Below the pieces are notes generated by a model. The model ran no database searches, was not told where the DNA came from, and saw only the letters and a list, made by a program, of their open reading frames with translations. A DNA stretch of 64,000 nt. Origin: Dictyostelium discoideum (lineage: Eukaryota). A program made the position numbers and the translations under genes. Positions 50,901 through 58,134 of this stretch are shown here, in pieces; within the stretch, counting starts at the first letter, position 1; each line of letters begins with the position of its first letter. The stretch spans positions 3,712,001 to 3,776,000 of the forward strand of contig CM000150.2 of the NCBI GenBank assembly GCA_000004695.1, read 5' to 3'.

Positions 50901-51158
50901 AATTAAATAATAAATAAAATAAAATAATTTGTTATTATTATAATTAAAAAAAAAAATAAAATATATTAAAATTTAATCAAATTATACCTTAATAATAAAA
51001 AAATAAAAAAAAAAAAAAGTCTACGAAATGTATTAAATCTACATAAAACCAATCGAGTATTGATTTGTAATAATATTTTTTTTTATTATATATATATAAT
51101 AGAGAATTTTCAAATATTGATATCTCTTTGTGATTTTTTTTTTTTTTTTAATAATAAT

Positions 51159-53064
51159 TTAAGTGAATTGATTTTCATTATTAAAAACATGAAGTTGTGG
51201 TTGTTGTTGAGGAGATGATTGGGCTTGTGGATTTTCATTATTAAAAACATGTTGTTGATGTTGTTGTTGTTGTTGTTGTTGTAAATGAACCTGTTGTTGT
51301 TGATGTTGATTTTGTTGAATTTGAATTTGGAATTGTTGCATTTGAATTAATTGATTCAATTGAGCCAACATAATTGATTGATTATCCTCAAGTGATTTAA
51401 TTTTAAGTTGTAAAGATTCAATGATTTTAATACTACTATTATCATTGTCATCACTTTTTGTTATCGTTGTAACATCACAATTGGATAGAGTTGATTTAAT
51501 CTCTTCAATGATTGAACTTTGTTGTGATGGTTGACTATCTTGACATTGAGATTGAATTGCTCTACGTTCTCTTCTCATTCTACTTAAAGTTTTAGCATAT
51601 TCGATATATTTCACACAAAACAATGCTTCCTTACTATTAAACATTGATCTATTTTGTGATATACTCATACTAGATTGCCATCTCCATCTTCTCCAAACCA
51701 ATTGAATTAATCTAGCTGCTGAATCTCTTTCTTTCTTTTGTGCTTCAACTAATGATACTAAATTTAATATTGGTCTTTGATGACTCGTTGCTTGAGTTAA
51801 TCTTGCAAAACTTTCAATTACAAATGATAATAATAATAAACCAAAAATACATGCAACCTAAATAAATATTATATATAAAAAATATATATATATATATATA
51901 TTAGTAATGATTTCTTTAAAATTTTAAATAATAAATATTTAAAAATGAATATTTACAATTGCAGCAAATCTACCACCAAAAGTTTGTGGATTATATTCAT
52001 CATAGGTATCAGTTGGCCAACCAGTGATCATAGAGAGAAAAGAGATATAGACAGAAACAGCAAAAGTGAATAGTTCATTTCTCTCCCTTTCAAAGACATA
52101 CATCCATTGACCAGTAACAGCCAATGTGAAAATTGTGAATGTTAAATAAGTGAGAATTGGTGCTATTGAAATGATATATTTTAAACTTAGTGTCCAATTG
52201 AATTTTGGAGCTACATCACGTAACAACTGCTTTTGAATATGGAATCTAAGTTTATAAACTGGACTGAAATCACGAAGAATTCTACAAAATAAATATAATC
52301 TTAACCACATTAATAAACCCCATTTGGAATCTTTATACCATGCATTCTCACCAGATACAAATGGTAATGGTTGTAATGAACAAACTAATATTTCACACCA
52401 AAATAATGGACCTAATTTAGTTGATTTTAAAACATTTACTCTTGTAACCCTAAATCCTCTTGCTCTCTTTGTTAACCAATCATGTGTTACCTCTGATAAT
52501 AATAATAAATAATAATCAACTAACTGAGTACCTAAAAAAAATAAAAAAAAAAATAAAAAAGTTAAAAAACAAATATTAACATAAATAAATACAAAAAAAA
52601 AAATACATACATAAAATTAAATTTAAAATGAATATGATTGCTCTTAATATTTTTGTTGATTTATTAATTTCCAATGAATGATTTTCAACACTCCATGATA
52701 ATTGTAATTCTGTGCACATTAACGAAACACCAATCATGCCATTAATCATAATGAGTACATATCTATGTCTAAGGATTCTATCTGTATTTTCTGATCTTAT
52801 TTCACTAAAATCATTTTTTTGGAAAAATACCAAAGGTTGTGAAAAGAAGAGAAAAAAGAGGAGAGAAAAAAAAAAAAAAAAAAAAAAAAAGCATTATGTT
52901 AATATTAAATCTTTTTTTTTTTTTTTTTTTTTTTTTTCCCAGTTCGAAAAATTGTTCTCTTACCTATATTTGTCAATATTACTTAATGATTTTTCTAAAA
53001 TTGGTAATTCTGATTCAGAATCTTTTAACCTTTGCAGATTGATAAGTGCTTTTCTTCTTGACAT
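51159..53064 (-). CDS. SK/IK-like (KCNN-family) six-transmembrane cation channel with a calmodulin-binding-domain-like tail, about 522 aa. The pore loop lacks the canonical GYG K+ selectivity filter
   Basis: Four exons on the minus strand: 53064..52964 (donor GTAAGA, phase 2), 52804..52611 (donor GTATGT, phase 1), 52531..51957 (donor GTAAAT) and 51857..51159; total 1569 nt. SK-channel signature blocks: SLMCTELQLSWSVENHS (SK S1: VIETELSWGLYSKDS), PLFWCEILVCSLQPLP, GLLMWLRLYLFCRILRDFSPVYKL (SK S4: [22 protein letters not shown]), TIFTLAVTGQWMYVFERE, and the pore and S6 stretch FAVSVYISFLSMITGWPTDTYDEYNPQTFGGRFAAIVACIFGLLLLSFVIESFARL. The tail has SAARLIQLVWRRWRW followed by a poly-Q region. Confidence 0.75.
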
Positions 53065-53267
53065 TATAAATTATAAAAAAAAAAATAGCCTTGACACTAC
53101 TACCCCCAATGTAACGAAATAATAATTATATGGTGTGGTTGCTATAGTAATAATATATAGTTATAATAACTTGATTTGTTGCTTCTTTTTTTTTTTTTTT
53201 TTTTTTTTGATTTCTTATGTAATTATTAGATTGTTGCGTATATAAATAAAAATATATATATATAAAT

Positions 53268-53287
53268 GTTTGTGTGTGTGTGTGTGG
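53268..53287. repeat. (TG)10 microsatellite
   Basis: Read directly in the sequence. Confidence 0.9.
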
Positions 53288-54206
53288 TATGAAAGTGTTC
53301 TATTTAAATTTATTTTTTATTTTTTATGTGTATGGTGTGTATGATGAATTATTTGTTTTTTTATTTATTTATTTTTATTTGTTTGTTTGTTTATTTTGTT
53401 TATTTACTGTGTCTTTAATAAAATGTAATCCTATTAAAAAAACAAGATGTTAAATATAAAAATACCCATACATAGTGGTAGTAGTGTAAGAAAATAAAGA
53501 AAGAGAAGAAAAAGGAGATAAAATTGTTGAAATACTATATATAATTATATAGTTATATATAGCAAAAATAAATAAAATAATAAAAAAAAAGGTTAAGCGA
53601 ATAATAAAAAAAAAAAAAAAAAATTAAAAAAAAAAAAAAAATTAAAAAAAAAAAAAAAAATTATTTTTAAAATTTGACCGATAACACTCTATTTCTAGGA
53701 GTGTAAAAAAAATAAAAAAAAATAAAAAAAAATAAAAAAAATAAAAAAAATAAAAAAAAAATAAAAAAAAGGTTATTTTCTGTGATAAAATAAAAAAAGA
53801 AAAATAAAAAATAAAAAAAATAAAAAATAAAAAATAAAAAAAAAATCAATTATGTTAAAAATTTGTTTCAAAGAAATAAAAGGATAATGATTAATGGTAT
53901 TGTTAATTAATTCCTACCTATCTGTGTCAATACATATATTCATCATATACAAATCAGTTAATAAATAAATTTATTATAAATTTGTTTTATAAATACACAA
54001 TGACGTAAATTATAATATGAATAAAATAAAATAATAAATAATTTAAAAAAAAAAAAAAAAAAAAACATTCACTATAAAAGTAAGATAAAAAATAAAATTA
54101 TTTATTTATAAAATAATATAAAAAGTAATAATAAAAGAAATAAAATAATAATAATAAAAATAATAATTGAAAAAATAAAAATAAAAAAAATAAAAATTAA
54201 ATAATA

Positions 54207-54797
54207 ATGGATCAGCCACAACAACAACAACAAAATCAAGTTATAGATAATCAAGGTAGTAGTAATAATAATAGTAGTAGTAATAATAATAATAATAATG
54301 GTGGAATTAAGCATAAAAAAAGATTTCAAGTTGAAAATGCAATAATGGGAATGATATTTTTTGGATTATCAATATTTTTAATAATTTATGGTATAGTTCA
54401 AATTGCAGTTGCAAGTGGTAAAGATGATATTTCATCACGTCATACATGGGCATTTACAGTTAATGGTATTTTCTGTTTAATTACTGGTTTTCATGGATTC
54501 TTTTTATTATTCCATAAAAGAGGTAGTGCAAAACATCATGTATTGTTAAATATTATATTGGTAGCTCAAGCATTCATTCTATTTATCATTTATTCAGCAT
54601 TGGTTCACCGTTATATCAATAGAGATTGTGGTGGTGAATTTTATCAAAATCCATATTGCGTTCACGATCATAAAGTTTATATAGGAATTTCATTGGCTAT
54701 ATTTTGGGCTGTCAATATCTTTACTTTACCATTCTCTTTAATTTGCTCAATTATTCATTTGAGAAATCAAAATCATCATAATGTTGAAAATGTTTAA
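54207..54797 (+). CDS. Small four-transmembrane membrane protein (196 aa) with an N-terminal poly-Q/N tract; function unknown
   Basis: A single ORF with four hydrophobic helices (IMGMIFFGLSIFLIIYGIVQIAV; WAFTVNGIFCLITGFHGFFLLF; VLLNIILVAQAFILFIIYSALV; IGISLAIFWAVNIFTLPFSLICSII). Its amino-acid composition is non-repetitive. Confidence 0.55.
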   Translation: MDQPQQQQQNQVIDNQGSSNNNSSSNNNNNNGGIKHKKRFQVENAIMGMIFFGLSIFLIIYGIVQIAVASGKDDISSRHTWAFTVNGIFCLITGFHGFFLLFHKRGSAKHHVLLNIILVAQAFILFIIYSALVHRYINRDCGGEFYQNPYCVHDHKVYIGISLAIFWAVNIFTLPFSLICSIIHLRNQNHHNVENV

Positions 54798-57161: not shown

Positions 57162-58134
57162 TTATTGATAATCATATGATTTTGTACGAGGAGCACGACA
57201 AATACGAATAATTAAAAACAAGGCGAAAAGCATACAAATAAATTCGATGACGCCAATTGAAACAGCAGCAGCACCAACCAAATAAAGATTTGAAGAGATT
57301 TTTGAAGAGATTACACTATCACAAGTATCGGTATATTTTGGAATACCTTTTGAATCCTTTGGACAAAGTAAAGGGTTTCTAGAACTGGTTGAATTCCAAT
57401 AGCAACATTTTAAGAAATTTTCTAATTTCAAAATTGTAGAATTCTTTGGACCATTTGATACATCTTCCCAAGCATTTCCAATTTGTTTAACAACATCATC
57501 ATTATGTAATGTTAAAGCTTTACCACCAACACCAATTAATGCAACTAAAATAATTAACATTAACATTGTATAAATTACCAAACCAACCAATTTCTCTTTT
57601 CCTGCCACAAAACAGCCAATAACTGTTAATATAACAAAGAAAATACCAATAACCAATACACCTGCTGGTGCTCCAGTTGTTAAATTTGAAAGTGCAGCTG
57701 AAGCTTTTGAAACTTTTGTAAAATCTTTAAAATTTGAAAAAAAGCTAACACCAATACTACCAATAATTACTTTTTTTTTTAAAAAATAAAAAAAAGAAAT
57801 AAAAGAAGTTTTTAAAAAAGAAAAATAAAAAATAAAAAAAAGAAAAATAAAAAAATTAATAATTAATATTTTTGAATAAATATAATAATAAATTTTATTA
57901 ACTAATAGTTCTTACCTAAAACTAAACCAAGAACCTATAATAATAATCAAAAAAAAAAAAAAAAAAATAAAAAAAAAATAAAAAAAAAAAAAAATAAAAA
58001 AAAAAATTAATAATAACAATTTATTTAATAAAATAATTAAATATAAAGCTTACCCAAAGAATAGTATTAAATGCAATTAATGGAACTTTAAGATATCTTG
58101 GAGTATTAGGAATTAAATTTGTTGTATCAACCAT
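57162..58134 (-). CDS. Tetraspanin, about 235 aa
   Basis: Three exons on the minus strand: 58134..58054 (donor GTAAGC), a 19-nt micro-exon 57934..57916 (GTTCTTGGTTTAGTTTTAG, phase 1; donor GTAAGA) and 57769..57162; total 708 nt. There are four transmembrane helices. The large extracellular loop carries the CCYWNSTSSRNPLLCPKDSKGIPKYTDTCDSV Cys pattern (CC...C...C). Confidence 0.8.

Follow-up and report, generated by a model that had tools for sequence, protein, structure and literature searches.

What does a channel of the SK/IK type conduct when the potassium filter of its pore is missing? This question is raised by a minus-strand gene of Dictyostelium discoideum, DDB_G0269864, located at 51159-53064 of a 64,000-nucleotide stretch of contig CM000150.2 (assembly GCA_000004695.1, forward-strand positions 3,712,001 to 3,776,000). 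We refer to this whole stretch as the window and give all positions in its numbering. The encoded protein is homologous to SK/IK (KCNN-type) channels and is predicted to share their fold, and its pore sequence is T-G-W-P-T-D-T-Y-D-E, without the canonical K+ filter S/T-[VI]-G-Y-G-D. The altered loop is deeply conserved, and the proteins that carry it fall into one clade. We favour the reading that the gene encodes a Ca2+/calmodulin-gated, non-K+-selective and possibly Ca2+-permeable cation channel. This reading is drawn from sequence comparison and a predicted model, and we give it an about even chance of being correct.

The channel gene is assembled from four exons, separated by three introns that all begin with GT and end with AG and have an A+T content of 80-94%. 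Introns 1 and 2 are 159 and 79 nucleotides long, and the A+T content of both is 80-91%. The exons are as follows.

52964-53064, minus strand: exon 1, with the ATG at 53064; it encodes MSRRKALINLQRLKD..., is followed by the donor GTAAGA, and is absent from the AX4 reference model.
52611-52804, minus strand: exon 2, encoding S1 and the first part of S2.
51957-52531, minus strand: exon 3, encoding the rest of S2, S3, S4, the S4-S5 linker, S5, the pore helix, the pore loop and the start of S6; its bounds are exactly the span that the first-pass annotation gave for its channel call.
51159-51857, minus strand: exon 4, encoding the rest of S6, the HA and HB helices, the coiled coil and the polyglutamine tail, and ending with the stop codon TAA.

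The spliced product has 522 residues and is the same, residue for residue, as a D. discoideum protein from an independent annotation (P0018, KAM9940940.1). It shares 99% identity with a second D. discoideum sequence, P0001, which stood in for it in the exhaustive search and the structure prediction described below. The AX4 reference entry for this gene (XP_646358.1, Q55CX3) is labeled 'hypothetical protein' and, in UniProt, 'Potassium channel domain-containing protein'. Its protein has 466 residues and begins at Met57 of the 522-residue product, so that the first 56 residues are missing; the missing part corresponds to 52637-53064 on the minus strand, that is, exon 1 and the first part of exon 2. 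In the homologue alignment, the N-terminus (MSRRK...) is kept in dictyostelids, Physarum and Vermistella. This conservation of the N-terminal 56 residues supports the longer model, and the AX4 reference model appears to be truncated at its N-terminus.

The pore segment, FLSMITGWPTDTYDEYNP (residues 263-280), is encoded by 52040-51987 of the minus strand, within exon 3. This reading and the identical annotated protein bear out the first-pass claim of an SMITGWPTD pore free of GYG or GFG. None of the three minus-strand frames encodes G[YFLM]G anywhere in 51100-53100, and none of 79 possible GT..AG excisions near the pore restores G[YF]G. A micro-intron or an alternative frame that would restore GYG, which the first-pass annotation had also failed to find, is thus ruled out. 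The motif recurs unchanged in five assemblies of the D. discoideum group, in eight further dictyostelid genes and in several transcriptomes. Since TGWPTDTY occurs in transcriptome sequences of Physarum and Vermistella, the motif is present in the mature mRNA of relatives. It had been proposed to look for the same filter in other Dictyostelium species, and every dictyostelid found has TGWPTDTY unchanged.

Homology to SK/IK channels is established by several independent searches. When the single sequence was searched against the PDB with phmmer, the only significant matches were SK2 and SK4 chains, the best being an SK2-4 chimera (E 8e-9, residues 52-351). A profile of 16 homologues matched SK2 with an E-value of 1.3e-24, with profile positions 52-459 on SK2 residues 137-543, from S1 to the C-terminal coiled coil (HC). 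The alignment of the family with 28 protist SK-like channels that carry GYG, made with hhalign, had a probability of 100% and an E-value of 1.5e-71 over 342 columns. When a structural model predicted by AlphaFold2 (AF2) was compared with the PDB by Foldseek, the best 20 matches were all KCa2.2 or KCa3.1, and KCNQ channels were far behind. Among the 16 family members, the Pfam domain SK_channel (PF03530) was matched by 9 (best E 1e-8) and Ion_trans_2 by 10 (best E 3.4e-5), and a Pfam scan of the Dictyostelium protein and the family members gave no match to Ion_trans (PF00520). The family matches to Ion_trans_2, together with the AF2 helices, indicate that the pore module is present (S5, pore helix, loop and S6). 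The assignment to the SK/IK family made in the first-pass annotation therefore stands at the level of homology and fold, as S1-S6, the S4-S5 linker and the coiled coil align to SK2 and SK4; its calmodulin-binding-type tail is matched by HA and HB helices that also align to SK2 and SK4. Functional membership in the family is not established, because the defining K+ filter is absent.

The AF2 model, built from the homologue alignment, has a mean predicted local distance difference test score (pLDDT) of 68 and a predicted template modelling score of 0.51. Its helix layout matches S1-S6, the S4-S5 linker helices S45A and S45B, HA, HB and HC of SK channels. Between S4 and S5 there are two short helices (residues 189-200 and 211-221), followed by S5 (223-249), the pore helix (255-268), the loop (269-282, all coil) and S6 (283-307). 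Two long helices (318-353 and 360-397) and a coiled coil (430-493) make up the C-terminal part. The parts that matter for the argument are located as follows.

52269-52328, minus strand: S4 (SKWGLLMWLRLYLFCRILRD), weakly charged as in SK channels; the second most conserved block of the clade.
52023-52064, minus strand: pore helix FAVSVYISFLSMIT, residues 255-268, as placed by AF2; it aligns to the SK2 pore helix GAMWLISITFL.
51981-52022, minus strand: pore loop GWPTDTYDEYNPQT, residues 269-282, identified by the alignments, its invariance and its conservation rank.
51807-51980, minus strand: S6, residues 283-307, split by intron 3 (51858-51956), with the invariant G296 and the near-invariant E305.
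51669-51776, minus strand: HA helix; it contains SAARLIQLVWRRW, which ranks first in conservation among the 12-mers of the clade, and aligns to SAARVLQEAW of SK4 and AAANVLRETW of SK2.
51537-51650, minus strand: HB helix (FCVKYIEYAKTLSRMRRERRAIQ), as placed by AF2; it aligns to SK2.
51249-51440, minus strand: C-terminal long helix or coiled coil (HC-like), which runs into the polyglutamine tract.

The placement of the pore loop against a K+ filter depends on the register of the alignment, and here the first-pass annotation was not followed. It had matched FLSIGYGD of SK to FLSMITGW and concluded that there is a 7-residue insertion. Three alignments disagree with this register: the phmmer match of the single sequence to the SK2-4 chimera and to SK2 chains, the match of the family profile to SK2, and the hhalign comparison with the 28 protist GYG channels. 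In all three, Y275 is opposite the Tyr of GYG, and the run YDEYNPQTFGGR is opposite YGDMVPNTYCGK. The segment D273-T274-Y275-D276-E277 lies opposite V/I-G-Y-G-D. The Tyr and the acidic residue after it are thus still present, but neither filter glycine is: T274 and D276 stand in their places, and D273 stands in that of Val/Ile. In the SK2 alignment, T272 is opposite the filter Ser/Thr. In both alignments made with the family profile, the net insertion amounts to 4 residues and the gap is opposite GWPT (269-272), although the exact place of the insertion in the loop is not fixed by sequence. The family alignment reads SM-IT-GWPT-DTYDE against TM-TT-----VGYGD, or more widely ...SMITGWPTDTYDEYNP... 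against ...TMTT....VGYGDxxP.... In agreement with this count, the distance from the pore-helix aromatic residue (Y260; W in SK2) to the G-[RK] of S6 is 26 residues here and 22 in SK2. The FLS-anchored register is a 3-residue slip inside the pore helix. It needs a turret deficit of 6 residues, compared with 2 in the profile register, and we rejected it. The alignment with SK and protist SK homologues that had been suggested as a check thus gives a 4-residue insertion and a filter equivalent of D-T-Y-D-E, not I-T-G-W. In the earlier interpretation, the homology and fold, the loss of GYG and the lack of a restoring micro-intron held, and the pore alignment, with its ITGW filter and 7-residue insertion, did not.

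Conservation of the loop extends well beyond D. discoideum. We found 17 close homologues, comprising sequences of dictyostelids of six genera (including Dictyostelium, Tieghemostelium, Cavenderia, Acytostelium with two copies, and Heterostelium), a Physarum polycephalum transcript, a Vermistella antarctica transcript and several metagenome fragments. All 17 contain TGWPTDTY, and none contains GYG or GFG. The same is true of a set of 21 close homologues that takes in the transcriptome-derived Physarum and Vermistella sequences. In an alignment of 16 sequences (dictyostelids, Physarum, Vermistella and metagenome relatives), S262, S265, M266 and T268 through Y275 are invariant, and nowhere else in the protein are invariant columns packed so densely. 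In S6, G296 is invariant and E305 is near-invariant. Position 277, equivalent to D80, varies in the family (E, V, H, I or Y). We note that one of the homologues, P0009 from Heterostelium album (PPL_03986), is missing the stretch that runs from the end of S2 to the end of S3, and its C-terminus is unrelated; this probably reflects a faulty gene model in that genome and not biology.

An exhaustive profile search over 1.84 billion representatives returned 1,842 matches at E <= 1e-3, including 114 at E <= 1e-30. The best-scoring representatives carry the motif W-[PAGS]-x-D-x-[YFW], for example TGWATDTY, IDWASDVY, VGWPADVW and LGWGSDTF, and the lower-scoring matches are canonical T-[VI]-G-[YF]-G-D channels. 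Named members with the W-x-x-D pattern come from Sappinia pedata, Gocevia fonbrunei, Phalansterium solitarium, Balamuthia mandrillaris, Planoprotostelium fungivorum and Vermistella antarctica. A taxonomy look-up places Gocevia and Vermistella in Discosea and Phalansterium in Evosea/Variosea, and we take Sappinia, Balamuthia and Planoprotostelium to be amoebozoans as well. Another W-x-x-D-type member is P0059 (Clim_evm28s44), with TAWPGDPFDVYDP; from the gene name only, we take the prefix Clim to stand for Corallochytrium limacisporum, an opisthokont. If so, the remodelled pore is older than the divergence of Amoebozoa and Opisthokonta or occurs on both sides of it. Two divergent members, P0175 (L003, 10001-11419) and P0034 (L004, 10001-11500), are single uninterrupted open reading frames on gene-dense, intron-poor metagenome contigs, and their neighbours are eukaryotic genes (histone, UCH, CRAL_TRIO and PLAC8). 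Their presence on eukaryotic metagenome contigs indicates that the clade reaches beyond the named amoebozoans.

To place these sequences without the pore itself, a neighbour-joining tree was made from S3 to the HA helix with 20 pore-loop columns removed. The tree is crude, being based on BLOSUM distances with a midpoint root and carrying no support values. A single clade of 51 takes in all 49 W-x-x-D sequences, and its other two members are P0064 (YAAD) and P0160, a GYG protein of a green alga. As all 49 group together even without the pore columns, the tree speaks for one ancient origin of the new loop. By these comparisons, the W-x-x-D-x-[YFW] proteins, with at least 49 representatives, form a distinct and old SK-like channel subfamily that is marked by a new pore motif. 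When 12-residue windows of the clade are ranked by conservation, the top three are AARLIQLVWRRW in the HA helix, KWGLLMWLRLYL in S4 and GWPTDTYDEYNP in the pore loop. Invariance of W and D in this ranking is circular, as the set was picked by the W..D pattern; the tree and the 16-sequence alignment are free of that circularity. The sequence comparisons show strong purifying selection on the pore loop, S4 and the HA helix. SK-like proteins with other non-canonical filters were also seen (P0066, P0068, P0071, P0077, P0087, P0089, P0121 and P0122), for example TTGLP-DM, TLDFEEY, GLLDM, VGNGS, VGYDAY, VGDGE and MDFDSM, and GYG seems to have been lost or remodelled repeatedly in the SK-like superfamily.

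Outside the filter, the Dictyostelium protein resembles animal SK/IK channels (KCNN1-4; KCa2.1-2.3 and KCa3.1) in most of its parts, and these channels are its best matches in both sequence and structure. It has the same six-helix layout, a weakly charged S4 (LRLYL-x-x-R), a two-helix S4-S5 linker with an F-N motif, an ER motif at the end of S5, the same pore-helix register, the same S6 spacing with a hinge Gly, an HA helix of the form AAR-[VL]-[LI]-Q-x-x-W, an aligned HB helix and a C-terminal coiled coil. The segment WLRLYLFCRILRD aligns to SK2, and the weak charge of S4 and the two predicted linker helices are both as in SK channels, where the linker receives the N-lobe of calmodulin. It differs from the animal channels in having no GYG, a 4-residue insertion (GWPT), D-T-Y-D-E in place of I-G-Y-G-D, and a much shorter S3-S4 loop (a gap of about 20 residues opposite SK2); overall identity is 16-18%. 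Protist SK-like channels with T-[VI]-G-Y-G-D, such as Cymbomonas CYMTET_38455, share the motifs RD-S-VY, PKF-W, FERE and AA-x-x-IQ-x-x-WR, but their pore loop is 4 residues shorter and contains GYG, and the W-x-x-D proteins form a clade of their own.

The retained parts suggest how such a channel may be gated. In the S6 alignment, G296 is at the same position as the Gly of SK2, and V303 and I304 fall where the Val gate of SK4 lies; together these suggest that an ordinary gate is retained. AARLIQLVW in HA matches AARVLQEAW of SK4 at 6 of 9 positions, with an invariant I-Q pair, and this SK4 segment and its SK2 counterpart belong to the calmodulin-binding helix. The match to SK4 and the rank of this block as the best conserved suggest, at the level of sequence, that calmodulin is retained as the Ca2+ sensor.

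The replaced parts bear on selectivity. In a K+ filter, the glycines of GYG are needed because the backbone conformation turns the carbonyls toward the pore axis, and channels in which they are mutated or deleted become non-selective, as in weaver Kir3.2 (G156S), Shaker with YG deleted, NaK, and the pores of cyclic-nucleotide-gated (CNG) channels. As a canonical filter needs both glycines and both are gone here, K+ selectivity is unlikely, and the view that this loop is not an ordinary K+ filter is well supported by the sequence. Residue D273 is invariant, position 276 is usually D or E, and E305 near the inner mouth is near-invariant, which points to a cation pore with a divalent-binding ring.

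Taken together, we propose that DDB_G0269864 would be a functional subunit of a tetrameric six-helix channel descended from the SK/IK lineage. It would have kept the gating hardware (weakly charged S4, two-helix S4-S5 linker, S6 hinge Gly, hydrophobic residues at the gate position, HA and HB, and the coiled coil) and rebuilt the filter, with GWPT inserted after the pore helix and S/T-[VI]-G-Y-G-D changed to T-D-T-Y-D-E. A four-fold ring of carboxylates from D273 may then allow non-selective cation conduction, with Ca2+ either permeating or blocking, and opening would probably be driven by Ca2+-calmodulin as in SK channels. A bolder version, which we regard as doubtful, is that the W-x-x-D-x-[YFW] loop is an unrecognised filter architecture that evolved once from a K+ filter, and that its carriers are Ca2+/calmodulin-gated, Ca2+-permeable channels for Ca2+ entry at the plasma membrane or an organelle, in a clade that extends through Amoebozoa and probably to at least one opisthokont and other protists.

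Known channels offer only partial parallels to this proposal. CNG (TIGET), NaK (TVGDG) and weaver Kir3.2 (SYG) are non-K+-selective pores that arose from altered filter glycines of a K+-channel module, and CNG (Glu) and NaK (Asp) have, like the Dictyostelium protein, an acidic residue in the filter. The filter here is 4 residues longer, whereas theirs are of GYG length or shorter; there is no specific similarity, and their parent family and gating domain are different. In Cav, CatSper, TRPV5/6 and CavAb, Ca2+ is bound by rings of Asp or Glu. By analogy only, one invariant Asp per subunit near an invariant Trp after the pore helix recalls the EEEE of Cav and the filters of CatSper, CavAb and TRPV5/6. 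In contrast to Cav, CatSper and NavAb/CavAb, the motif is W-x-x-D-x-Y instead of T-x-[DE]-x-W, and the AF2 model has no P2 helix between the loop and S6; to these Ca2+-selective acidic-ring pores there is no homology beyond the general P-loop channel fold.

Several observations weigh against the proposal. The Dictyostelium protein alone stays below the Pfam cut-offs both for SK_channel (13.8 bits against 31.8) and for Ion_trans_2 (13 bits against 22.5, E 0.098). The calmodulin-binding domain CaMBD (PF02888) is matched by only 1 of the 16 members (E 0.013), and the predicted calmodulin binding thus rests on the alignment to HA and HB only. In the loop, the AF2 model is less confident (mean pLDDT 67 over residues 271-280). 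D273 is the only acidic position without variation, as some members of the clade have G, S or Y at position 276, and the loop resembles no characterised Ca2+ filter motif.

The first-pass annotation had offered two options, a pore that is not K+-selective or a non-conducting regulatory subunit. In the latter case the protein would co-assemble with another channel and modulate it, or act as a Ca2+/calmodulin-dependent sensor or scaffold with a dead pore. This would fit the absence of GYG and the lower AF2 confidence in the loop, and odd filters in other protist SK-like proteins (TTGLP-DM, MDFDSM and VGNGS) indicate that filter loss recurs in the superfamily. A dead pore should drift, yet this loop is invariant in the dictyostelids found and in the Physarum and Vermistella transcripts and ranks among the three best-conserved blocks, and the S6 hinge Gly and the inner Glu are invariant and near-invariant, respectively. 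Silent K+ channel subunits are not known to lack GYG. A GYG-type SK partner in Dictyostelium did not turn up in a composition screen of the best 150 representatives, and in a search with the GYG alignment, words generic to K+ channels dominated and the proteins retrieved were bacterial and GluR0-like. We consider the non-conducting subunit unlikely and, from the sequence evidence, favour the non-K+-selective cation pore, because its loop is one of the three parts that a large and old clade has conserved best and the S6 hinge Gly and gate positions align with those of SK channels.

A K+-selective Ca2+-activated channel with an unconventional filter, in which T272 and Y275 support K+ sites in a different backbone, seems improbable. 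T272, Y275 and the acidic residue at 277 do lie opposite the T/S, Y and D of T-x-G-Y-G-D, the UniProt label names a potassium channel domain, and Dictyostelium shows Ca2+-dependent K+ efflux on stimulation with cyclic AMP. Against this, beta-branched or charged residues occupy both glycine positions and the loop has gained 4 residues, changes that are not known to leave K+ selectivity intact in any K+ channel studied, and the D80-equivalent position is the variable one described above. We give next to no weight to an artefact, whether it came from a pseudogene, a sequencing error, an unrecognised micro-intron or a mis-spliced model. The AX4 reference model does have a flaw of its own in that it is 56 N-terminal residues short, but the open frame is intact, its three introns are canonical, no frame or GT..AG excision restores GYG, and the identical motif recurs in the assemblies, genes and transcriptomes listed above. 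The remaining probability goes to a conducting channel gated otherwise than by calmodulin, or to a function that we have not thought of.

Other features of the locus were also observed. At the end of the polyglutamine tail (51159-51330, minus strand), an HVFNNEN motif is duplicated, and D. discoideum strains (the window and P0018 compared with P0001) differ by small indels in this tail and by T100I in S2. The region is A+T-rich, with a Dictyostelium-like composition. Intron 1 (52805-52963) and the upstream region 53065-53870 contain very long A/T homopolymers and repeated TTTTTTTTA units, which are typical of Dictyostelium intergenic sequence and suggest no function, and a (CA)n run is found near 53280, upstream of the channel gene. 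Two neighbouring open reading frames encode membrane proteins.

54207-54797, plus strand: open reading frame divergent from the channel gene, encoding a 196-residue multi-pass membrane protein with an N/Q-rich N-terminus.
57162-57656, minus strand: open reading frame encoding a 164-residue Cys-rich membrane protein, tetraspanin-like in look.

A scan of the window for tRNA genes found none.

A review of calmodulin lists DDB_G0269864 as an 'uncharacterized gene', on the basis of a Gene Ontology calmodulin-binding annotation (PMC7079120). As cited in that review, the gene is among those differentially expressed under hypertonic stress (Na et al., 2007). The literature searched, whose coverage leaves out many subscription journals, gave no account of the filter and no functional study of the gene. 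The automatic labels, both the 'potassium channel domain-containing protein' and the Gene Ontology calmodulin-binding annotation, are probably wrong.

SK/IK channels are a textbook K+-selective family, and this clade keeps the SK gating apparatus but has, in place of the filter, a longer loop that is acidic and strictly conserved. Its conservation turns a single-gene oddity into a distinct, old subfamily, which may be a new class of Ca2+-regulated cation channel and would be a natural experiment in which selectivity was re-engineered on a fixed gating scaffold. In D. discoideum the clade looks to be represented by a single gene. As patch clamp, Ca2+ imaging and knock-outs are routine there, the question is open to direct testing. 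If the Ca2+-permeable reading is true, some of the Ca2+ fluxes in Dictyostelium chemotaxis or osmotic stress, which are still poorly assigned, could come from this channel.

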